A stretch of DNA of 64,000 nucleotides. It comes from Laetmonice hystrix. Taxonomy: Eukaryota. Under the pieces are notes generated by a model that was not told the origin of the DNA, ran no database searches, and was given only the letters and a program-made list of their open reading frames with translations. Position numbers and translations under genes: made by a program. The stretch lies in the NCBI GenBank assembly GCA_965235115.1, contig OZ249436.1:34970001-35034000 (forward strand). Direction: 5' to 3'. Positions 2-63,480 of this stretch are shown in pieces; the stretch's first letter is position 1; every line of letters starts with the position of its first letter.

Positions 2-3000
2 TCTTCAATTGCATTAAAACATACTCAAAGGGAGACAGGGGGAGTCATTATTCCAAGTAACATCAATCCACATGTTTTCACAAGCTTCTGTTGGGACAAT
101 ATTGATCTCAACGAACAGACCTTAAGTGGAAGTAACACCACTCACTGCACGAACGGGATCCTTGTTCAACGCCGTGTTCACACATGCGAGCCCGCAACAG
201 GTCAACAAGAAGGAAGTCAGCTGCAGATGGAGACAACTGCTGAGGTCCCTGGTTTCATGCCATATATTCACAGAGCTAGAAAGGGCCCAGGAATACTGAA
301 TGTTGACTTCCAAATATGCTCAAGTCTGAAGGAAGCTTTCAGTAAACCAAAAGAGATAGATTTTGCCTGGTTCCTGCTAAGACTACCCGTGAAATCTGGC
401 AACCTCTTCACTGTCTCTTCGCCTCTTGATGATCAGCAGCAAATGATTCCAGGTGTGTTCTCTTCCTTCTAGTTCCTTGGAGGGCCCCCTACAGTTATTT
501 TCTCGTGAATATACTGTGCATTGTTACTCTCACCTATGGATGAAGGTTGCTTAATTATCAGTCTATCCAGTAACCCAGCATATTACTGATGGTTTCCTTA
601 ATTCCAATCCTACAATAAGAAATAATGGAATTATTAAGTACAACTGTAGATAATTGCCATGAATACACACATTATGCTTGTCCAATGGAGGGGCAGCTAT
701 GTAGAACAAAGAATAAGTTTCATGTCCCACGAATATCTTCGAACAGAACAGACTTTTAACTAAGGGGCTGGTTCCTCAGTCGTGAAAGGCCTAAGTACTA
801 CTATTACTTAGGCAAGAAATCATCCAAAAACGTTACTTAAGTTAACCGTTCCTCATTCGCGCTAAGATGTGCTGAGCCTATCTTAACCATTACTTGCCTA
901 AGTCAGGTGCGGAGGTTACCAAACAGTCACCGGGTGCAGAGCTGACCGGCACCATGAGCAAAGCGGCCCGCGTGACTCTTTCGACGACTGAGGAACCTAT
1001 TTTGGGGAATGAGCACTGCCCAGCTTACTTGTTACTCAGCCAAGTCGTACTTAGGCGCACGACTGAGGAACCGGCCCCTGGTCTATAATCGGATGTTAAT
1101 AAAATCTCTTATTTCAGGCTGGAGTCCATTTAATGCTCGGGTACAGCATAACCAAAGTGTGCCAACATCCAATGTGGGATACTGCCAGACTATTGATTCA
1201 AGTCCAACAGAACTAAGCACAGTACATACAATCTTGCAACGGTCACTGGTCATGGGCAATCAGCTCGGACAGGAAGACGTCGTGGTGGTCATGGATCAGG
1301 CCATTTATTGCAAAGCCAAGCAAATCATTTGGTCAGCGCCTGGTGATTACAGAAGGGTTGTTCTCCGTATGGGAGCTTTCCACATTGCATGCAACTTTCT
1401 TGGAATTCTAGGGCAGCGTTTTGGTGAAGCAGGCTTGCGGGATCTGCTAATCGAAAATGGCGTTGTGGCAGCTGGATCCATTGGATGCGTACTGAATGGA
1501 CACCAATACAATAGAGCAGTTAGGGCCAACAAGGCAGTCTATGAAGCACTGCTGAGGATCAAGTGGTCAGACTTCGGATCCTGGTTGGCTGCGAATCCTG
1601 ACATTCCATTTGACCAAGAAGCACTTTGTACCCTTCTGGGGACATTTCAAGATGGCTTCTCATCTGAGGAGATTAAAGATCTGCTTGATTCCCCAAATTT
1701 CAAGCATGCGCTAGCAGCTTACAAGAGGTACACAGCTACTGATCGCGGACCAATGGCTGCCTTCTGGGAATCCTACCTCACTATGTTTCAGCTCTTCCTT
1801 AACTTCATCAGATCTACAAGAGAAGGAAACTGGGCCCTCCACAAAGCATGCCTCCGGAACATGCTTCCTTGGATGTTTGCATATGACCACACTAACTATG
1901 CGAGGTACCTGACTGTCTACCTCTGGGATATGTTGCAACTTCGGGAAGCTCATCCCATAGCTGATGAATATATGAATCAGGGCGAATTTGCTGTGCAGCG
2001 TTGTGAAGCTCATGCTTTTAGTCAAGTTCCTGTCGACCAAACCATTGAACAAACAGTGAACAGGGACAGTAAGACACCTGGTGGCATCATAGGCTTCAGC
2101 CTGAATAAATCAGCTATGCATAGGTGGATTCTGACAGCACATGACAGAGCTGCCATCACACAGAGTTGTAGACGTATGGCAGGCTTGAACACTGAAGAAT
2201 ATGGCCGACACAAAGAAGACACGAAGCCTAGAATAAAACAGGACGAAGAATGTGTTGCACGTCTCGTTAAGTATCTGATAGATCAGACCAATCCATTCCA
2301 GCCTTCCACAGATCTCATCAGTGTCACCTCTGGCATCGTAGCACCAGAAGACATCACTCGTGACCTACTCCAAGCTGAGGCAAAAGGGGAAGAAGCACTG
2401 GATAAATTCGTGAAGTCACGTCTCAATAAAAATGACGTTGATTTCTTTGATCCCCTCAAGAAGCTAAATCTGAAAAGATTCAGTAAAACAGCCAACTCTA
2501 AGTCGAAAAAACCAAAAGAGTCCATGCAGGCCGACCTTGACTTCTTTGCAAGATCCTTAGTCATAGCACAGAACAGACGGCTTGATCTCCGTGAGGTTTT
2601 CACGTATGAACTGAGACAGTTTCCACCTTCTTTGGCATCACCAGATGGGGGACTGTGCAAAACAGCCAAATCGAAGTTGGCCCAGCTTCTGGAGATGAAA
2701 ACAGTTTCTTCTCTCCAGACACCCAAAGGATCCGTCTTCATTATGGATGGAATGGCCTTCCTACACACTCTGAAACAAATGCCTGACACCTTCAGAGAAC
2801 TTGCAGACAGAATCTTGACGTTACTCTTCAGACAGGCGAACAACTTTGGTCAAGTTTCTCGAGTGGACTTCGTTTGTGACAGGTATGAGGATGTTTCAAT
2901 CAAAAACATGGAAAGGAGTCAGCGCTCAGCCTCTCTCAGTGGCGTCTTCCAAGTGAAGATATCAAATCCATCTCAGAAGTGTCCACAGCAATGGCAGAAA

Positions 3001-4035
3001 TTCCTTGCAGACGAACTAAACAAAAAGGAACTCATTAGGTTTCTTTACAAGGAATGGCAGACAAGTAAATATGTCAGTGTTCTGGAAGACAAGGAACTTT
3101 TCCTCACTGTTGATAAAACCTGTCACAGGCTAACATCCCTTGGTGACAACATTCAGGACGAAATTATGTCTACCTTGCATACTGACCAAGAAGAAGCTGA
3201 TGGGCGATTGTTTCTTCATGCCCAAAATGCAGCACAAAATGGACATCAAACAATTATCATCAGAAGCCCTGACACCGATGTTGTAGTCTTAGCTCTCCAT
3301 CACCAACAGCAAATTAAGTCAAACTTGTTTCTTGTCACTGGAGCACAACAGAAACAACGTGTTGTTGATATCAAGAGTCTTGCTGATGCATGGGGTCAGG
3401 GCGTGTGCAAGGCCCTGATAGGACTCCATGCATTCACTGGGACGGACGCCACAAGTGCCTTTTGTGGTAAAGGTAAAAAAGTTGCCTTTGATTTGCTCCA
3501 ACGGGATGAGGTGGCAGTGAGGGCATTTCAACAACTGGGAGAGTCACTTCAAGTTAGCACTGAACTCCTGAACTTGTGTGAGGAGTTCACTGCTCATCTG
3601 TACGGAATTGACCACCTTGACAGTATCAGTGAGGCCCGGTTTCTTCTATTCTGCACAAAAGGTCATCACCAATCACAGCAGCTTCCCCCAACACAAGACG
3701 CACTCGTACAACACACGAAGCGGGCTAACTATCAAGCAGCTATCTGGAAGCGTGCAATGCAATCTAGGGCCCATATACCAAGTCCAGATGGCCATGGATG
3801 GACTGTCCGAGATCATGCTCTGTCCATTTATTGGACACAGAAAGTCACTGCACCAAAGGAACTCATGGAGTACATCTCATGTAAATGCAAAACTCCCTGC
3901 ACTTCCAGGCACTGCTCTTGTAAAAGATCCAACCTGACATGTACGTATGCATGCCACTGCCCAAGAGACTGCACGAACAAAACTATGAATCCAACTCTGA
4001 AAAATCTCGAGGATGACAGTGAGAGCGAGGAATAA
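2..4035 (+). CDS. Academ transposase-XPG nuclease fusion, 5'-partial; exons <2..452 and 1118..4035
   Basis: The frame from position 2 reads ...FCWDNIDLNEQTLSGSNTTHCTNGILVQ...QQMIP. Donor CCAG|GT at 452/453 and acceptor TTTCAG| at 1117/1118 join in phase to give IPGWSPFN. Transposase motifs: WDNID, MDQAIY, MGAFH, HTNYARY, DQTIEQ. XPG/FEN PIN-like motifs: DGMA, VCDRY, QEEADGR, SPDTDV, TGTD. C-terminal CKCKTPCTSRHCSCKRSNLTCTYACHC. No stops or frameshifts. Confidence 0.88.
763..1079. mobile_element. MITE (Harbinger-like ends) in the transposase intron
   Basis: 22-bp TIRs AGGGGCTGGTTCCTCAGTCGTG (763-784) and CACGACTGAGGAACCGGCCCCT (1058-1079), 1 mismatch. No clear TSD. Confidence 0.75.
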
Positions 4036-4264
4036 AATAATCAAGTCTAGTCAACGACTCATCTGCTGCCAGGCTTCCCAGTTTTCCTGCTGTCAGTTGC
4101 CATTGCAGTGGCCTGGTCGGTAGCAGCTGGTGATGCTGATCTGGCATGCCATAGCTACTTCTAGTTGCCCACTGTTCCTGAAACCGATTCTGGCCCCTGC
4201 CTCATTGAAAGACACGGCCACGTGGTCTGCCTCTAATTAATGAAGTGCCGGATGAGCCCTGATG

Positions 4265-5704
4265 ATTACCATGGCAACGAGATAAAGTAACATTTTGTAG
4301 GGTGTGGGTGGGTGTTTGGAAAGACTATTGCTAGGCAACGGGATGGAATTGTCAAATATCAATATACTGTAATTCTTTGCACCTACTATTTTTATAGGTT
4401 TGATATAGATTAGTTATCATTATAATACCGGTCACTAAGAACGTATTCAAAAATAATTGGTTGCTAGGCAACAGAATCCAAACATGATACATCCTGACAA
4501 ATGAAGCATTCGACATTTCCTCAAAATGTCTTATCCTCAAAGTACCCTAACTTAAGAAGCTGTATGTTCTTAGAAACTGTGCTAGTAGACCAGGCTAGAA
4601 TGTTGCATATAGCATGATCTGCCAAAAAGGAGTGGTTCTAACAAGGTTGTTCTATTGTTACCATGGAAACCATACAGACTAATTTTCAGATACTTTACGA
4701 AAGAGACGTGTACATATATACACTTACAATGCTTTAAAAATGGAAGAAATAGCTAATACCTAATGCTAGGAAAATCGATGGCCCAATAGTCACCAATTTT
4801 GGAGTTTATTGGTTACCATGGCAACAATATAATGTTAAATTTTGTGTATGTGTGTGTTTTTGTAATGTACCCTCTGAGCTTTTCCATACAAGCTATCATT
4901 ATGTCCTGATCCCCCTTAACTGTCTTCACTATGTTGAAATAACTTGACACCCCAAAGTATGGTGTAAAATATAATATTAAGATTGTTTCATTGTTACCAT
5001 GGAAACCAAGCAGAATAATTTTTACCTCCTATGTGATTCAGGTTAAAGACAAGGGTACATATCAGAATAACCATAGAAGTTAAACAAATATATGATACTG
5101 TGGTTACTGGGGAGACTGAAGAAACTATTTTCCCCATGTTCTCCAGATTTATACAGTTTATTAGTTACCATGGCAACGAGATAAAGGAAAAATCCTGTTT
5201 TGTTAATTTTGTAAAAAACATTCTCTGAGCTCTTTCATATGAGATATCTCGTGCACAGATACCTAAATAAATGACTCTGGTGTGTTGAAATATCTTAAAT
5301 CTTCGGCCTCCCTACAATATCGAGTGGAACTGGAGTTTGGCACTGTTACTATGGAAACGATCGACCTCAATTTCCATTTCATATGTTATTCAAATTCCAG
5401 ACATATGCATCTGTCAAACTGCATGTGTAGACATGAAGCATTTATAACACTCCGGTTCCTGTGGCAACTTACAAAGTAACAATTCATCAAAAATCACCAA
5501 ATTGAGAGAGTTTACTCGTTACCATGGAAACCGGATAACCATGACAACAAAAAAATTGTATTTTCTGGAATGTACTCTGTAAGCTCTTTCATATGAGCTA
5601 TCACGCAATCTATTCTGTGGATTATTCGCTTCTAGGCAATACAAAATATCAGTTTTCCCTAAACTACCTAAAATACAGAGGTTGGTTTTTGTTACCATGG
5701 AAAC
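4265..5704. repeat. Subterminal degenerate ~350-bp repeat carrying GTTACCATGG(C/A)AAC palindromes
   Basis: Motif or close variants at 4265, 4327, 4460, 4657, 4812, 4993, 5164, 5345, 5518 and 5691. Surrounding blocks recur at ~4790, ~5140 and ~5495. Confidence 0.85.
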
Positions 5705-6994
5705 AGTGCAGTTGTGGGTAATTGCCGACCAGATAACTGTCGGAAATAAAAAATTGAGGATTTTTCCTGCAGTTTTGTACCAAGAAAGTGAGCTAACAAG
5801 GGGGGGTCCACGAAATTGAAAAACTAGGGCCTTTTTCAGCCCTCATGTGATAGACTATATGATCCGTGCGATAAGAGTGATCGAATCAAGGTAGCCTGTC
5901 AAACCGTTACACGCCCCCATTGAATCGTCACACCCGGTTTTGTGTGACGGTTTGAACTTTGACTTCTTTCATTTTACGGAATTGTGATGGTTCATTTTGA
6001 CGACTTGACTCTCATGTTAAGCGTTATGTTGAACACCCTTGTGTTGAATCGAGTCAAACAAGGCAAATAATACGGCAAATCCATACTCAAAGTGGTTCAA
6101 TATTATGAGCCAGGGCGACTCCCAGCCCGCGGATCGCCGGGCCGCCCTAGCTGTCCCCACCGGGAGCAACCGTGCGGCCCTGCAGAGCTGTCGCAAAGTG
6201 GCCGGGTCATTTTATTCGATTCATCTATGTTTGGTCAAAGTTGTTAACATAACAACAACTTTATAATGATATCTGGTCTATATGAGTTTACTAACACCAT
6301 TATTAGAGGCTCTAACCACTATATATATAAGGGACTCAATTTCGGCCGGCATCTCACTACCTGTGCCAGTCATGTGTCATTGCGCACTGGGGCGATACAT
6401 GGAATCCATGTATATCAATGCGTCGAGGGGTGTCCGAGCACAACTACAGCGAAGCGACCGGAAGTTGGGCCGAGGTTTTCCGAATGGTCCTAGGCCATGT
6501 AAGGCGTCACATGAGGTCCCATATAGAATCTGTCCCCGACTTCACAGTAACGTAATGGAGCTCACTAGGAACCTTGACGTTTGATAGCAAACTGTAAAGC
6601 TAGCTCCTGGCGAAAAAAATAATCAAAATAAAGAACACTTTTTGGACTGATGAATGGGTGATCCTGTAAGGTTTTCTTACTCTGAACCTTTTCTTGGTAT
6701 TTAAAAACGCCATGAAATTATGCAACTAAGCAAAGAATTCGTCAATACTGTAAAACAACCCGGTACTATGCTGCTATGCCCTTATTGCTAATAGTGAATA
6801 CTGATATGCGTCCTTATGTAAATACATTGGGAAGTAGGACGATAAACTCAACATAAACAAACAACAAAACCGAGCGCAGAAAAAATAAAACACTCAAAAA
6901 CATCTTTCCCTTGGTCTTTTTTTCAAGGGGGGGGGGGGTTCTTTTAACTCGTATAAAGTAGGTGGGTTGCGCCCCAGATGCCGAGCAGGGGCAG

Positions 6995-8466: not shown

Positions 8467-11400
8467 CTATTGTTCAATCTTGCGATCTGAAAATAACAGA
8501 GAATTCTCTTAATGTGTGTTGGAAAAATTCCAATTAACATTCTCAAGAATGTATCGGATTTATTCGGGTTTTACAATTTAAGCATCCATTTATTTGGAGT
8601 ATGACATTACAACTTATTACCTTTGTGAGGCGGTCAGCTGCTGCTATATAGAATTAAAGCGACAACCATTTGAAGCACACTCTGAGAATCTACTTGGCCA
8701 TTGTTTATTGCATAGTATAAGAATTGTAAATATGGTGTGCATACGTGTACATACCTTTAGTCGAGACAAACTTGAGGGAGTCACTGAATATTCAGAATCG
8801 TGACTGGCCTTCGCGAGGACCATCCCCCAGAAATTCATGTCCTAACCCGTTGTCACACTTCCCACAGCGCACCTGAAAGAGAACCCTGAAATCACTGTGT
8901 GTCTCGTTGGGATCATACACGGATGTATGGATGATTTGGTATTCTTGTGTTGAACATACAATTACAATATATATATATATATATGTATGCTAGTTTACGA
9001 TCTTGCAAACTAGCTGTGCCTGTAACACAAGTGTTGACTCATGCACTTATTCCTCCTGCATGGGGATCTCCCCAGGATATGGCAAAGTACTCATGACCAA
9101 ATCAGTTGATTTTCAATGAAAATGAACAGAATGCTACATCTATTTTTCCTTTCTTTATTTAAATGTGAACTCTAAGAGTAGGATGACACACACAGAGTAA
9201 AAGAAATCCTACCCATAGTGTACTTTAAGTGTTGTAATTAAGTGAACAACTTGAACAAGAATTGCAATGGGTATAGCCGTGCGAAGTGTATATTGTGTAA
9301 CAAATCATTTCTAATTTAATTTGTCCAATAAAAATTTCGGTTATTAAGAATACATAAGGCATTAATTTGATATTCTGGGCCTGTTGTACAACTTGTCCTT
9401 CACTTGTTCCATTAGATGGACAAGGAAGATCTTCTTCTGGAACTAGTCAAATAATGCTAAGGTTCTAAGCATCAAGGTCCTACATCTGAAAGTTATACTA
9501 GAGATTTCAGGAATTCATTTACCTTGTATACGTTTGCACCCTCTTGGTATTTGGCCAAGCTGTCTTCATGAAGTGGCTCAGTAAAGGCTGGCCATGGTGA
9601 TGAATGCTCATATTTTCCTCGACTTGAAAACAACTCATGCCCACAGTTTGAGCATAAGTATACACCTTTCAACCCAAAAAAAGAAGACAATAAGTATTTT
9701 TCTGTGTATAAGCCACACTTTCTTCCTTCTCAAACTAATCATAAATCGGAGGTGTAACTTACGGTATACATGGCCATGTGTCTGAAGACGGCCTATAAAA
9801 AAGTTAGTTTGACAGGATATTATGACTAGGTCCCTATAGGTTCCAATGGGAACTGGCCTGCTATATACCAATTTGAAAAGCTGTTGTTTTCCCTGAACAC
9901 AAATTATATATAATACAATGTATATGATGGATTCCAAAAATAAAGGTGTCATATTGTTTTCAATGCCCAGGGAAAGCAACAGCCAAATAACACTTATACT
10001 TTTTTTGATGGTTTTTAAATGGTTGTACAAAAAAGAATACAGTACTTAGCAACCTGCTTAGGCGACCACCTTTGGGACTGAGCTTTTTTTGGTCGCATAG
10101 CGAGGTGCTCGCCTCCACGAGCGACACCTTATATGGGGTAAAATCGTTTGTTCATTGAGAGCTAGGGCTGGGACGATTCATCGATACAATTGTGAATCGC
10201 GATATTTTCACGGAATGATACGATTTACGGTTCAAAAGCTGTGAATATGTATCGATATGTTAATATTCTTTATATGTTATCAAAAAGGCATTAAAACATG
10301 ATAAAAAGTGATAGAAATCTAACGAAAGCTGTGGCCCGTGGTGTCATACTGACATTCGGCTCAGTCACAATCAGGGTACCCAGTGGTTTGCAAATTGGTC
10401 CAATTTTTTTTTTCCTCAAATAGGAGTAAGTCATACAATGATTTTTGCAGAAATGTGTCAGGATTCAAATATAACAAACCCTGTGAAGCATTCGCACTCT
10501 GTTTTCGAGATACCAGGTTTCGAATAACATGTGTCCCATGGGGGTACGGACAGGACAGGGCTGCCGACAAACCAAATTCAGATCGTCAAATGACCAAGAG
10601 GGCTCTTGAACCAGATGTCAAACCGTGTTCAATCTGATCTCAGACCTACCAATACCATCGGGGCTTATGTTAAGAACAAATGGCAAGCCGAATTGGATGA
10701 ACAACCAAACAATAAATTGTATCAGATCAGTCCCGTCGTGAACCAAAGGTATCATCACGGCCTGACCCAATGTAGACATGAAATTGTTTTTACTCGATGC
10801 AGGATTGGTCATTCTAGATTAATCCACGTGTTTTTATTGAAGGGGAGCCACCTCCAGAATGTTATGGCTGTCAGTGTCCTTTGACACTGAAGCATCTTTG
10901 ACTTGAGTGTGGTGATTTTACTCTGATCAGACAACGGTTTTATAATGAGACAAGTCTTAAGGACCTTTTTAGCAATGTCAGACCAGTATGTGATTTTAGA
11001 GTTTTTGCCAGAGGCTGGACTTCTCACTCTTTTATAGTTCAGGCTCGTCGATAGCCCTGTTGGGCTGACAGGATTGAGTTTGTTTCAATTCCCGTTGGGG
11101 CCCGGGATAAAATGGGTTCTTTTCACTTTATGGTCTTTTAACCCTGTTTTCGCCATGAAGATGACCCCGGGTGCCGACACGGCGGAAAACCACCACTACT
11201 CACTCACTCACTCACTCACTGCAATATATATGCAAACAGAAACTGATTATGTTCACACATCCTTCACTTTAAATAATGTCCTGTCCGTCCCCCCTTCATT
11301 ATTTTCGGGTTACAGTGCTGCCTATTAAATTAAAGCAGAAATCAGATAGCTTTTAAATTTCTGATTGTTATACATATAATGTAGCAAGTATTGCAAATTA

Positions 11401-12827
11401 ATGCAGTAATCACAATATTAGCACCAGATTTACTGAACTAAAATACATTTTTGAAGCATATAAGTTTAGGTGGTGCATAACCCGTCAGTAAATTTCCCTT
11501 GTATTAAAACTTTGAGCGAAATATTGCATGAACTAAATGTATTATTGCCTTTACAGTTTATCCAGTAGTAAATAATCAACATATTGTCATATTCACTTGA
11601 TAAAACGTCATCAAATTAAAGCCTATAGCAAGGGGGTACGGACAGGACGACGGGGACGGACAGGACAAAATGCGAGTTGTGTCTTGTTTTTCAGGACGCA
11701 ACAGTGTGAAACCTCTTATAAATATTGTATTTAAGGACGTTCAAAGAAGGGCTACACATGCACAATATGGCACAAGTAGCTGCTTTTAGAGTAGCGAGAT
11801 GCCCCATGGGGTACGGACAGGACACAAATTTCTGGAAATAACAGCATGCAAAAGGATTCATACCTATTTTCATATATGATAACACCCAAACTTTTTTCTC
11901 CATCCCAGTTCCAAATAAACATTATTAAGTTTAAACCAGTGGCATTAGTATGCATTTATGTTGGAAATTACAGATATCTGGTAAGGTTTTGGTCATTGTA
12001 ATAAAAATATCGCTATTTTGTAACGAACAACACATTATTGAAAACATTCTGGTACTTTCCTCACAGAGGTCAGATTTCAACCAGAATACCTGCATGTAAA
12101 GAAAAAATGTTAACAAATTTATTATGCATATCTACATTAGTGTAATTGTAACATTAAACTGACATTTACGTTATGCAAAACTACGTAATTCATAGGTGCA
12201 AACCCGTAACAACTAAAACCTGCCATTCTTCCACATGTAAAACCACTTTTAGAAACATGAACTTCAACATCGACCCAAAGAAGGTGCATGGATGTATGTG
12301 TGTTAACAAGACACTTCGCATAATAAACATAAACTGTGGCTATTTATTGGTATAGGTGTGCAAAGGTTGCTGTAACATTACATAGTCCTAAAATGACACC
12401 TGATTGTGACTGAGCCGATTGATATGGCATAGGCCTACATGTGCATTACTGATCAGTATTACAGTAATCAGTTTGATTTGAATCAGTTTGAATCGTAAAC
12501 AGCGTGTATCGTCCCAGTCCGAGAACAAAGATAACATGGAGCTAACAAGGCTAAAGCTGGCCACACAGATGAGTGTGTAAAGAAAGCTGTTTCAATGATC
12601 GTGCTACCGTGCGACACCATTTCGTACAAGTTTGCGTAGTGAGTGTTGATGATGAAACCACGGATCACAGTTTTCGAGACATGACATGACACCGAGTGCC
12701 AAGGTGGCTTGAGCGATAATACCCACATTGGTGACTAAACCTACAAGCACACGATACGCAGTTTATACATACCATTTTTGAAATGTTCTTTGTACTTTTC
12801 TCCACCAAACCAGCTGCAGAACGACAT
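8467..12827 (-). CDS. MSRB1: Methionine-R-sulfoxide reductase B1 (selenoprotein R/X), 111 aa; exons 12827-12773, 9665-9523, 8872-8755, 8486-8467
   Basis: Spliced protein [46 protein letters not shown]...[35 protein letters not shown]...DRKIEQ. Two CxxC zinc pairs and Cys4 are present. The in-frame TGA at 8794-8792 falls in the SRFUIFS catalytic motif. Confidence 0.96.
10357..12417. mobile_element. Non-autonomous DNA transposon, superfamily unassigned
   Basis: Perfect 19-bp TIRs CGGCTCAGTCACAATCAGG / CCTGATTGTGACTGAGCCG, flanked by ATT on both sides. The internal motif GGGGTACGGACAGGAC recurs near 10541, 11634 and 11808, with an inverted copy near 11278. Confidence 0.8.
10578..11220 (+). mobile_element. 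5'-truncated, decayed I-clade (Nimb/Ingi-like) LINE
   Basis: Frameshifted ORF2 C-terminus: [17 protein letters not shown]...[13 protein letters not shown]...[13 protein letters not shown]...EC (CCHC knuckle). Ends in a (CACT)n tail at ~11201-11220. The 5' boundary is approximate. Confidence 0.8.
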
Positions 12828-13158
12828 CTTTCTCCCGTCTTGTCCCACACGACACTGAACAGACCGACCGACACACCCACCCGCACCCGGTCCTGTTTCG
12901 TAATTTTGTTTACCTTCCCATGGCATAGTCTAACCACAATGACGGTGCACTATCCACCAACCTATCTACAGCGCAGGCACATGGCATGGACCGTAATACC
13001 TTGAACACAATTTGTCATAATTTCAGCACGGCTATCATAAAGCCTGTCGAGACCTCGTAATATTATCTACGATGAAAATTTACAATCTGTCACAAGAGAG
13101 AGTTACTGCACCTTCTGTAGACAATCACCATAAGGCAAATTTTCGTTTCTGGAAAGGT

Positions 13159-13173: not shown

Positions 13174-13926
13174 GGGTGTCATAGTGGCCAGACTGGCGCC
13201 CCTTTCAAGAAGACAAGATTCTAGGTCCTTACTTTATGGGTAGTATTCATTGGATCAGTTCAGTATCTATTGCTCATTTTGATTAACGACCAAAGGTAGT
13301 CATTTAGAACTTAAGTAGAAATTTATAGTCAGTACTAGGCCTACTGACTGGCACACGCAGTACAGCACGTCACTCGTCAGTACTGGCAGTGTTCACTGTT
13401 TGTTAAATAACTGTACTGTAGACAGTGTAGTGTTGAGTGACGATGTTCTTTTTATTATCTAACTAACTTCTGATCATATTTATATATTTTAGGCCTAACG
13501 TCAGGCCTAATAATATGTTATATATATATATATATAATAATAATATGATAGAAATTGTGATGTTTCTCAAAGCATAATTTAGGCCTAGCCTGCCAATAAT
13601 TTTTTGTCGCTTCAAAAAAGGGGGGCTTGTACCACCCCCCCGCCAATAATGCCATTTATTATTGCTTTCTGCCACATTCATAACCAAATTGGACATTCTT
13701 CCTTTTGTTTTGTTTACCCTGGGGTTCCATTTAATTTAAGCCCATTGGCTTCATTTGTTTGGCTGTACATGGGACGATGCTGTGTCTACCTTTTGTTTGG
13801 ACCCGCCCCTGATTCCTATCAAGTGTAAACTGTAAAGCATTTACCAGCATGGCTTGGATTTAGAAGATAACCAGTAACTAGGGATGTTTTTTGCATTTTG
13901 CAGGGTAACTACTGGAAGGGACAGTG

Positions 13927-16504
13927 ATGGGTAAAACAAAAATGTCTGAGCAGAAAGATGCAGGAGTAGAGCCTCTTCCAGTTTCAAAGAGGAAAGCATC
14001 TGATTCTGACACACATGTTGTTGGAAATAAACCTAAGCGACAAAAGAAAGCAGTACCAACAGATTATGAAGTAGAGAGTAGGCCAAAAGGCCGCACCCAT
14101 ACTTTGAGAAGCAAAAGGAAACCAATTAATAGTCGAGCCGGAAAAGCTTCAGGAAGGAAACAGAAGGTTGTCAAAAAAGAGGAGATCGAAGTGGCGTCTA
14201 CTAGGGAAAAGAAGGAACAAGTTGGTTTATCAGTAAAGAAGGAGATTTTAGTAGAGGAGCAAACAGTGGAAAGTACTCCTGCTTCCTCCAGGGGGTACTC
14301 GGCCAGACGGAGGAAGTTAGTGGGATGCCATACATCTATTGCAGGTACCTGCTAAATGGTTTATGATCTCAGATTCGGTTGGGCTATTGGGCCCAGCAGA
14401 TGGTGTTAGCATAACCCTGAAAAAACAAACTCTGTAACCAATAGCCCTAGTTAGTAACAATTTTCAGTTGAAAATTTGCAAGCATCCTGAACAGAAACAA
14501 GCAGTCGAGTCTGTCAGTTGATAAATGTCCGTTTTCCAAAGTAAGCTGTAAATAAATGTGAGTAAAGTACAGCTTGAAATTATGTCTTTGTGCTTCTGTA
14601 TTGTAGGAGGCCTACAGAATGCTGTGTATGAGGCAGTTGACCTTGGGGCACGGGCGTTTGGTATGTTTCTTAAATCCCAGCGCCAGTGGAAGAGTAAACC
14701 ACTTGCAGATGACGTTGCAGAGAAATTCAAAATAGCTTGCAAGGTTGGCACACTTCCTTTAATCTTCACGTGTACTAGTGAAATTCAGAAAACGAGGGAA
14801 AAAGAAAATCAAATTTGGTGTGAATAAGATAATTTACAGAAATCCTGATTTTGGACAGTGATGTGGTAGTACAGAGCGTCCTATTAGAATTTTCTGTTGA
14901 TTGGAAACAAAGCAGTGTTCTAAGTTCATCAGAATTACACCCATTTTGTACCCAACACATCTAAAAAGATGAAAGCTATACAAGGTATATCATATGTTAA
15001 CATTGCCATGTCTGTTTTAACCAAATTGTACAGATCTATCAAGGCCTAACCTATTCAGCACAATTAAATTTATATTGTTTATTCTATCTGGGAATGGCTA
15101 TACAGGAGCATGGATTTGCGCCCCACCACGTGGTCCCTCATGGGTCCTATCTCATGAATTGTGGCTCGCCAAAAGCTGAGTCATTGGAAAAGAGTCGTGC
15201 AATGTTAGTTGATGAGCTGCAACGTTGTGAAAAGCTTGGCTTGGCACTCTTCAATTTTCATCCTGGTAGGTGTCATCCAACCAATGTGTGGTTTGACCCG
15301 TTCTTTATGTGTTCTCAATTTATAACAGATCAAGAATGGCTTTTATCAATCGTGATGATCAGACTATTGTTAGATGCAATGTAAGAAGATTAAGTTTGCC
15401 AAATAGTAAAATCGAATTACAAATGTCTAATCATTCTTTCAACAAGGTCAGACTCTTTTTGTAAATAAAGGAATGTAACTTTGTTTGCAGGTTCAACGTG
15501 TGGTGAAATCACAGTAGATGAGTGTGTCAATAGGATAGCTGAGAGCATTAACCAGGCACTTCAACAATCTAAATATGTGACTGCAGGTAACTAATATAAC
15601 TTAGAATAAACCCCAGAATTGACTTAAGTGACCTTCATGTAAGTTAATAGAGGCCAATCTTACGGTGAGCGACATGTAAATGTTATATAATATAGATCGG
15701 TCATGTCCATCAACAGTAAAATGTAAATAATGCATACAGACTTATCGCCACTTTTCTTTGATTTATGTTTTGAATTACATTATTTCCTTTTTCTCTATGA
15801 ACTTCTTGCAGTTGTTGAGAACATGAGTTGTCAGGGAAACACTATAGGAGGCAAATTTGAAGAACTGGGGCAGATCATTAAAAAGGTGAAGAACAAATCA
15901 CGTATCGGAGTTTGCCTTGACACTTGTCATGCATTTGCTGCCGGGTATGACCTCAAGTCCGAGGCTGGCTACCATAAAATGATGGACAGCTTTGAGAGAG
16001 AAATTGGACTGAAGTATCTGAAGGCTATCCATGTCAACGACTCAAAAGGTAACAATAGAAGCCAGACTACTCCTGACTCTGCTGTTGACTATAATGTCGA
16101 TGTTTCTAAAGTATTAGCCTAGATAAGCCAAGTAAAAGTGCCAAAAAGATTTAAGGGGGACTGACATTTTCACACTGTATAGTACATGTAATTAGATGAA
16201 CGGATATTTTACACACTATCCTAAAGTATATCTGTTCGAGAAATGAGACATTGCCCATTAGAAAAAGGATGCTTTATGGAATCTTGGATCATCTGATATT
16301 CGAATACCGGTATTCTTAATTTCAGGTGAGGCAGGGTGCCACCTTGATCGTCATGAGAACATTGGACGTGGAAAGATTGGAACTGAAGCTTTCAGCCGAT
16401 TTATGAATGATCCCCGTTTTGACGACATTCCCTTTGTCCTAGAAACACCTGGAGGGGACTATTCACGGGAGATCAAGAAGTTATACTCGCTGTGCAAGAC
16501 GTAG
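13927..16504 (+). CDS. apn1: Endonuclease IV-family AP endonuclease (APN1/Nfo-like), ~408 aa; exons 13927-14344, 14607-14743, 15106-15265, 15491-15586, 15812-16048, 16326-16504
   Basis: Motifs VGCHTSIAGG, PHGSYLMN, FNFHPG, VENM, CLDTCHAFAAGYD, IHVNDSK, DRHENIG and LETP supply all nine trinuclear-metal ligands. There is a basic N-terminal extension of ~125 aa. An acceptor at 13903 implies an upstream exon, so the start codon is tentative. Confidence 0.93.
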
Positions 16505-20167: not shown

Positions 20168-36275
<16,108 letters not shown>

Positions 36276-62358: not shown

Positions 62359-63229
62359 TGTCCATCCGTTACCGAAAACACATCATTTTTGAATTTTTTA
62401 AATATCAATCTTCTATCCAGAAAGGGGAAACTTTCTAAAAGAAAGCATTTTTGTATGTGTAGTATGATATAATCAGTTTCGAAAAAAAGTTTGCTAAATG
62501 AAGATTTTGAGAGGGGCGAAATCTGTCCCTCCGTTACCGGCAACGGAGGGACAAAAATTCAAAGTATCTGAATTCAGAATATTTAAAGCTAGAATCATCA
62601 TTCTGTTACGACTAACAAAGTTATTTACAGGCATTAGGTACTGTAGATCGGGAAAATTTTGCGGCAGTGAAATTTCGCGAATGACCTTTGTAAAACAAAT
62701 TCGCAGCATATTATTTTCGCGAGTCAGTGGGCTTTGGAAAACAATTCAGGCATACTTTCAAAGTTTAGCAGTGGAATAACACATCTTCACCGATGCCACG
62801 CTGATGTGTCAGTCTATGGGTTGAAATGTCTTCATTACTCCCCAAAAAAACCAACTAACCAAAAAAAAACAAAGATGTCATCATTACCATTGCATTTTTA
62901 CATGATCTTATTAATAAAACAATCAATTAGAATTATATAATTGACTTCTTTTTTTTGAGGAATGATATTTTGGACACTCTTTTGGTCACTTTTTCACACT
63001 ATTTTCAACTTTCACCAGTTGAAAACTTCCTTGTAATACTGGTGCAGCAGTTGCCATGGATACGCCACAGCTTTTGACAATAATGCGAAGAGGTGGTCCA
63101 CAGGTGTCAAAAATAAATTTCTGTAAAGCTATGGATAGAAACCCCTGATACATGATGTACAATGGCTGCCTAAATGGACAACTACAATCCTGTCCCTCCG
63201 TTACCGTTTGCAAATGTCCCTCCGTTACC
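62359..63229. repeat. Probable DNA-transposon remnant with a recurring TGTCCCTCCGTTACC motif
   Basis: Motif near 62359, 62525, 63191 and 63215. The copy at ~62525 forms the palindrome TGTCCCTCCGTTACCGGCAACGGAGGGACA. Ends not defined. Confidence 0.45.
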
Positions 63230-63480
63230 ATGACCACCTTCATTCAAAGCCCGCTGTAAAATGTCTGAGGGGTCCTATTGGCTTGAAAATTTCTACATTC
63301 ATAGTTGAATGATAATACCACCATATAAATCAGACACATAATCCTTATCATTCCAGGAACCGTGGATTATGTGTGTACAGAAAACATGTAAAAAATATAT
63401 GTTAATTTATAAATGTGCTGCCGCTCCGACTCAGGCGAGGTAAAACAAGGGAATTTGGCTTAAAATGTCCGAAGCATTTA

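Follow-up and report, generated by a model that had tools for sequence, protein, structure and literature searches.

Why should one end of a DNA transposon carry ten copies of a palindrome resembling the RFX X-box? The question is raised by the 64,000-nucleotide stretch of Laetmonice hystrix DNA analysed here (the window), in which an intact transposon of Academ type carries ten X-box-like palindromes after its transposase stop codon (4035) and before its right terminus (5857). A sequence-only reading had described them as a phased array of RFX sites at about nucleosome spacing, which could recruit host RFX or, alternatively, be bound by the transposase. On the sequence comparisons presented below, we lean towards the boxes being host RFX sites kept for the benefit of the element, as the chromatin architecture of its end.

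The features of the element are collected in Table 1. Its gene start and left end precede the window, and the spliced frame, open already at the edge of the window, extends over 1122 codons to the stop at 4035 with no internal stop. Pfam and PDB searches with the window transposase gave no match, and the lack of a Pfam match is expected for Academ transposases according to the available part of one study (PMC5751038). Transposase homologues numbered 56 at E ≤ 1e-10, and across them D547, D591, E696-A-D698, D722 and D724 are invariant, G778 and D780 nearly so. We take this conserved acidic pattern to resemble XPG/FEN, and the label XPG-like for the nuclease-type region is our assumption; profile and structure searches with this region gave no match. 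The Cys-rich tail is visible directly in the transposase C-terminus, with TCR matches in 7 of 18 full-length homologues, all under the curated cutoff (best E 9e-4), and a weak profile match to the lin-54 CXC (E 0.025). For a candidate N-terminal zinc finger, the PHD-type zinc finger of ubi-d4 matched weakly (E 0.14). A small element with inverted ends of about 22 bp (GGGGCYGGTTCCTCAGTCGTG) is inserted in the intron at about 763-1079.

The right terminus could be placed to the base. The contig of another copy stops at 5857, depth jumps more than tenfold just past it, and other copies of the flank read TTTAGCATG before 5858, so that the terminus is ...GTGATAGACTA at 5857, where the right end shows the TAG..CTA form. 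Relatives end in ..[GC]ACTA, with ends set by copy divergence in L047/L050/L007, L078/L079 and L065/L064; both ends are visible as TIRs in L047, L065, L077 and L078, and L047 and L065 display TIRs, TAGT..ACTA termini and a 3-bp TSD (caa). The assignment to Academ/AcademX is presumptive and follows family features as we know them; the Academ superfamily and the AcademX lineage are said to go back to Kapitonov and Jurka in 2010 and Kojima in 2020. Shared with them are a long transposase without a Pfam match for the catalytic domain, the TAGT..ACTA termini with 3-bp TSD of L047 and L065 and, presumably, the nuclease-type region and the CXC tail, whereas neither subterminal host-factor motifs nor the predicted N-terminal winged helix were found described for Academ in the literature searched. 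TSDs of 3-4 bp and an encoded nuclease are given for AcademX in the accessible text of PMC10045372, and the nuclease-type motifs and CXC tail of the window element, with the ends and TSD of its relatives, fit this lineage.

Near-identical further copies of 4246-5857 occur in contigs (four runs, one sample); the transposase ORF is without cover in these contigs, and gaps there carry no weight. Several to a dozen or so copies are hinted at by an array depth of 360-860 (X2) against 30-85 for single variant contigs, depth not being equal to copy number. Deletions of 64 bp (4350-4415) and 245 bp (5242-5488) were seen within the array in other copies, hence box number differs between copies.

Table 1. 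Features of the transposon and of its right end in the window. Negative values are distances in bp from the terminus at 5857.
Feature	Position	Strand	Remarks
Academ transposase, upstream exon	2..452	+	Open frame, runs in frame into next exon; intronless homologues share FAW..RLP segment
GT..AG intron of transposase gene	453..1117	+	P0002/P0003 (closest homologues) begin at same junction
Transposase, last exon	1118..4035	+	Conserved core, EEAD..DTD..GxD nuclease-type region, C-terminal Cys-rich CXC-like domain
Box 1	4265..4278	+	ATTACCATGGCAAC; -1593; similar to start of A-type unit
Box 2	4327..4339	+	13-bp ATTGCTAGGCAAC; -1531
Box 3	4460..4472	+	13-bp GTTGCTAGGCAAC; -1398
Three degenerate B+A dimer copies	4648..5682	+	About 345-350 bp each, 57-66% alike
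Box 4	4657..4670	+	GTTACCATGGAAAC; -1201; B unit
Box 5	4812..4825	+	GTTACCATGGCAAC; -1046; A unit
Box 6	4993..5006	+	GTTACCATGGAAAC; -865; B unit
Box 7	5164..5177	+	GTTACCATGGCAAC; -694; A unit
Box 8	5345..5358	+	GTTACTATGGAAAC; -513; B unit; C at 5350 in other copies gives a perfect box
Box 9	5518..5531	+	GTTACCATGGAAAC; -340; A unit; counterpart of conserved -345 position in relatives
Box 10	5691..5704	+	GTTACCATGGAAAC; -167
Right terminus	5830..5857	+	Ends ...CATGTGATAGACTA (..GATAGACTA, ...GACTA)
Flank, very high-copy host repeat hosting the insertion	5858..6400		Depth 10,000-47,000 (X1-X3); outside the element

All ten sites were recovered by pattern and palindrome scans. Eight are 14-bp boxes of the GTTACCATGG(A/C)AAC type, box 1 (ATT..) and box 8 with one mismatch each to it, and boxes 2 and 3 are of the 13-bp TTGCTAGGCAAC type; weaker variants lie at 5103, 5455 and 5535. 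The array as a whole extends from -1593 to -167 bp relative to the tip. A relaxed palindrome scan of the window placed 10 of its 14 matches inside 4265-5704, and GTTNCCATGGNAAC at ≤2 mismatches gave 15 matches in the window against 3.3 expected, a number reached by 0 of 100 shuffles. The gaps between the last seven boxes (155, 181, 171, 181, 173 and 173 bp, most boxes being about 172 bp apart) reproduced exactly the spacing first described, and the first three boxes are out of phase with the rest (62, 133 and 197 bp). TRF did not detect the array, and an Rfam search of the window returned no match. The proposed agreement with the RFX consensus holds in a looser form: eight of the ten boxes fit GYTRYYN(1-3)RRHRAC, which the available text of PMC3414849 gives as a Drosophila X-box consensus, but only three (4460, 4812 and 5164) fit the strict form quoted originally. 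Spacers of 1 and 2 bp are both present, a further likeness to the RFX X-box (RFX1-DNA, PDB 1dp7), and the difference is that ten candidate sites stand in a transposon end here, against one or two in a ciliary-gene promoter. An RFX identity of the motif is supported by these matches.

The array retains traces of its history. Alternate spacers, i.e. those of the same type, are homologous (z 4.3-7.1 in five of six pairs, 1.5 in the sixth) and spacers of different type show no detectable homology (z ≤2.7 in all 15 pairs), which confirms the degenerate dimeric repeat of about 350 bp noticed in the sequence-only reading and indicates that a two-box unit of 345-350 bp was copied about three times. 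The boxes are indeed better conserved than the spacers, with identities of 86-100% against 58-66% for same-type spacers, the latter not far above the 52-55% at which shuffled dimer units align. As far as its sequence allows judgement, the array is a real, selected feature. The 10-bp periodicity of AA/TT/TA within it is borderline (1.19 vs. a 95th percentile of 1.20), and the spacing of 171-181 bp would be compatible with nucleosome phasing.

Relatives of the element were drawn from a metagenome scan, the best 80 of 438 related stretches of which represent 65 families besides the window element. A single X-box 3' of the gene was found in 7 of the 43 families whose sequence extends 300 bp or more past the gene (L008, with an incomplete 3' end, was omitted), whereas 100 shuffles averaged 0.05 and reached 1 at most; for 25 of these 43, which have no assigned end, up to 900 bp were taken and may include host DNA. 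In the 19 families with an assigned right end, six X-boxes fall within 13.8 kb of subtermini and one within 18.0 kb of flank, this lone flank X-box sitting 144 bp inside another TAGT-starting element, and none turned up in the far flank (41 kb), the coding matches (173 kb) or the remaining 58 kb of the window. Measured from the tip, the box begins at -345 in L001, -346 in L047 and L035, -347 in L058 (13-bp form) and -340 in the window element, and at -310 in L066 and -183 in L006; the element end belonging to the L019 box is not on the contig. Transposase identity among the window element, L001, L047 and L058 is 26-44% (67% between L047 and L035), and nothing around the boxes aligns by BLAST beyond the box itself. 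With uniform placement, and L047 and L035 counted once, the probability of three of five lineages falling within 2 bp is about 3e-4; counted from where the gene match stops, the box lies 230-538 bp away in L001, L047, L035 and L058, a distance that is not conserved. For L006 the assigned end (+1063) is uncertain, and the box there may be part of a host promoter; the termini of L006, L011, L012, L074 and others were set by resemblance only.

Whether other Academ families possess the same array, as had been proposed for verification, can be answered in part: the single X-box recurs, but no ten-box array occurs among the best 80 of 438 loci, many contigs of which stop within 1 kb of the gene, and the relatives never have more than one strong box per end. 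Among these loci the ten-box array is specific to the family of the window element. A quick tree with 44 rows requires 7 changes of the X-box label, against 7.5 for shuffled labels, so the X-box is scattered over the tree and not limited to one clade. In the complete L047 element the box is present at the right end only, with none at the left end. Box variants across families comprise 13- and 14-bp forms and several half-sites, and span the RFX range documented in the accessible part of PMC3414849. Viral contigs contained neither relatives nor a two-box pattern. A separate element starting TAGTCCGGCGG was noted at L047:6816-7260, in which X-box variants are spaced by about 140 and 155 bp and include GTTCCTGTGGCAAC, the variant at window position 5455.

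Other words recur in the same subtermini. In an unbiased 8-/10-mer count YY1 words headed the ranking and CCATGGCAAC, TCACGTGA and TGACGTCA also placed high, and we take the recurring words to be YY1, X-box, USF and CRE motifs. They cluster at two depths, about 140-185 and 305-350 bp from the tips: CRE/USF at -166/-154 in L047 and L035 and at -137/-124 in L066, YY1 at -337 in L023, at -305/-152/-136 in L077 and at +155/+367 of the L047 left end, USF at -321 in L053. This clustering relative to the termini is significant (P 0.0002-0.002; 0.0003 after omitting L035 and four doubtful ends). The best cross-family period, 194-208 bp, is unlike the 172 bp of the window array; the third periodicity test excludes L029, whose right end (+1445) was rejected as copies diverge at about +1164, the L029 CRE thus lying outside the element. 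The motifs are not universal, since 13 of the 19 families with an assigned right end have no X-box and 7 of the 19 have none of the four motifs. That host factors act in the service of the end is indicated by the conserved distance from the tip together with a motif apparently exchangeable for those of other host factors.

Spaced host-factor motifs were also observed in another element of the window, unrelated to the first, at 20862-22440. It is Helentron/HINE-like, with (TCCG)n, short subterminal inverted repeats and a 3' hairpin, and its 463-bp units carry seven YY1-type sites every 135-181 bp and paired TGACCTTGA/TCAAGGTCA motifs, presumably of NR5A/ERR type.

In the interpretation that we favour, the boxes would be bound by a host RFX-family factor and kept by selection on the transposon. 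Academ ends would carry host-factor motifs (RFX or, in other families, YY1, CRE or the USF E-box) arranged in rings at depths of about 140-185 and 305-350 bp, and in the window element a two-box subterminal module of about 345 bp would have been duplicated in tandem long ago, its boxes being kept while the spacers decayed. The bound factor would keep the end open and position nucleosomes between the boxes and the terminal repeat, thereby giving the transposase access to the tip, and allowing it to pair the tip, in the chromatin of the germline or early embryo; we infer, in other words, RFX binding, nucleosome phasing and an effect on transposition. This would be a eukaryotic counterpart of the host architectural site in a transposon end. 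Host architectural sites at transposon ends include those of IHF in Tn10 and Mu, of HMGB1 with Sleeping Beauty and the YY1 site of L1, which likewise place the site of a host DNA-binding protein at a fixed distance from the element end; here, in contrast, one family seems to use RFX where another uses YY1 or USF/CRE, and the spacing is of nucleosome scale. Mouse RFX1 is reported to contribute to nucleosome-depleted regions in zygotes (bioRxiv 10.1101/2022.03.03.482916). Against an architectural role, RFX5 alone is reported to bind nucleosomes (PMC12311785), and repeats of mobile elements often have monomers of 140-180 bp, as in oyster (PMC7492417, PMC8268682). Overall, the comparison suggests that Academ transposons may use host factors to arrange chromatin at their ends. 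A broader proposal, tentative and in our opinion somewhat unlikely, is that Academ and perhaps other invertebrate DNA transposons (e.g., the Helentron-like element at 20.9-22.4 kb) set their ends on a nucleosome grid, with interchangeable RFX, YY1 and USF/CRE one and two nucleosomes in, exposing the terminus to the transposase, the RFX version having been amplified here into a seven-box phased array.

The same host factors could have a different use. RFX, YY1, USF and CRE are promoter and enhancer factors and multimerised sites are typical of enhancers, so the boxes might constitute an enhancer or antisense promoter active in testis, ciliated cells or the early embryo rather than end architecture, their spacing of about 172 bp being a mere by-product of the duplication of a nucleosome-sized unit, with which the common 140-180-bp monomers of mobile-element repeats agree. 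The measure that is conserved, nonetheless, is the distance to the terminus (345-347 bp) and not that to the gene end (230-538 bp), and the sites, located 3' of the gene, are over 4 kb away from its promoter, which makes such a regulatory function quite unlikely in our view. Neither host factor nor selection would be needed if tandem duplication had multiplied a chance palindrome and palindrome correction or gene conversion had preserved the copies; the array did originate by duplication and the box is missing in most families, as this neutral course would have it. However, six of the eight 14-bp boxes have exactly one mismatched pair when read as palindromes, two have two and none is perfect, and this one-base asymmetry, constant across boxes and never perfected, argues against palindrome correction, which we infer would tend to perfect them. 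Moreover, boxes occur in A and B units with no detectable spacer kinship, and the same tip distance recurs in lineages with unalignable flanks, so that a neutral origin appears highly improbable.

A further explanation, already raised in the sequence-only reading, is that the boxes are subterminal transposase sites read by the N-terminal winged helix, their fixed distance reflecting transpososome geometry. Analogues are the TnpA sites of CACTA and the subterminal sites of hAT (Ac), where short, densely packed sites at both ends are recognised by proteins of the element itself. They share with the present array the presence of several conserved short motifs within a transposon end, but here the motifs are host-type palindromes of 13-14 bp, spaced about 172 bp apart and, in L047, confined to one end. 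The lead comes from an AlphaFold2 model (117 sequences, pLDDT 89) of the N-terminus of L047, a relative, that of the window element preceding the window: L047:727-2256, like its homologues, is predicted to hold a winged helix (model residues about 207-289) along with two zinc-finger-like modules. The best structural match among 48,161 chains was RFX5 (8zjr_M; Z 7.3-7.4, rmsd 2.7-2.9, 73-74 aa), and RFX1 on its X-box (1dp7_P) matched with Z 6.7 and rmsd 2.6-2.8 over 69 aa at 20% identity; RFX5 and RFX1 ranked 1 and 4 with the whole model, 1 and 6 with the isolated domain. A homologous winged-helix segment in L001 and L006, of the clade of the window element, a more basic wing (HPxxRxxSE) in relatives nearer to it, the CCATGG contained in some termini and Pox_D5 in 17-30% of members of Atlas neighbours also speak for a transposase that reads the boxes.

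Yet these Z values are below 8 and tied with the winged helices of Cdt1, kleisin and cullin, Foldseek gave no RFX row and no match at E ≤0.001 for either model, a profile search of the PDB gave no RFX match, and Pfam RFX matched none of 18 full-length homologues nor was among the 25 families listed for the 117 N-termini. At the sequence level the domain thus showed neither a match to RFX_DNA_binding nor a conserved basic wing, the wing being variable; an Atlas search with the P0006 winged helix gave no usable match. In RFX1, the residues R57, R58, G60, R62, K66 and Y67 lie in the wing. Helix 3 of L047 is basic and conserved, but its wing is acidic and variable and by eye does not have the basic pattern R57/R58/G60/R62/K66/Y67, residues which are included among the DNA contacts of RFX1 in the available text of PMC12311785. 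Helix 3 and wing are strongly divergent among the box-bearing L001, L006, L047, L019 and L066, L014 combines an L047-like helix with no box, the left end of L047 has no box, and the winged-helix domain occurs in 26 loci, box-bearing and box-less alike. The wing does not follow the boxes, and although the Academ winged helix gives the idea a concrete lead, this comparative pattern disfavours it and we consider recognition by the transposase unlikely.

Transposons with host-factor sites and nucleosome-sized repeats in transposons are already known. The HINE repeats of oyster Helentrons (140-180 bp) are likewise nucleosome-sized monomer arrays in mobile elements with locally conserved segments, the differences being that they belong to Helentrons, that their monomers are much more alike and that the accessible text names no transcription-factor motif (PMC7492417, PMC8268682). 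What is new is the fixed terminus distance across distant families, the apparent swap of host motifs and the winged helix. A literature search, covering papers in part, retrieved none on X-boxes or host-factor motifs in Academ ends or on an Academ winged helix; original family descriptions, Repbase Reports and the supplementary bivalve and oyster consensus libraries could hold such information. How cut-and-paste transposases get to their ends in chromatin is poorly understood, and a host-factor site at a fixed distance across very distant families makes end access directly testable. Should the boxes instead be read by the transposase, competition between Academ elements and RFX for ciliary and germline promoters would follow. 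Under either reading the elements would disperse groups of RFX motifs, a confounding factor for motif-enrichment and ATAC analyses of invertebrate genomes and a potential source of new enhancers.

The possible relevance of the array for the neighbouring MsrB1 gene, suggested by its proximity to a putative SECIS, was not supported. MsrB1 is a selenoprotein gene with an in-frame UGA and exons at about 12830, 9660-9520 and 8880-8770 on the minus strand, so that the array lies 3' of it and more than 7 kb from its start (about 12.83 kb); the putative SECIS folds no better than shuffles (z 0.86), and a SECIS acts as RNA. MsrB1 (8770-12830, minus strand) is head-to-head with a gene at about 13900-16100 that looks to us like an endonuclease IV-type AP endonuclease. 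Farther along the window, 62525-63240 contains a repeated TGTCCCTCCGTTACC with the 12-bp X-box GTTACCGGCAAC (62533) and GTTGCCATGGATAC (63050), and is probably another repeat with RFX-type sites. A G-rich minisatellite of 46-58 bp with telomere-like GGGTTAGGG words occupies 30570-31330.
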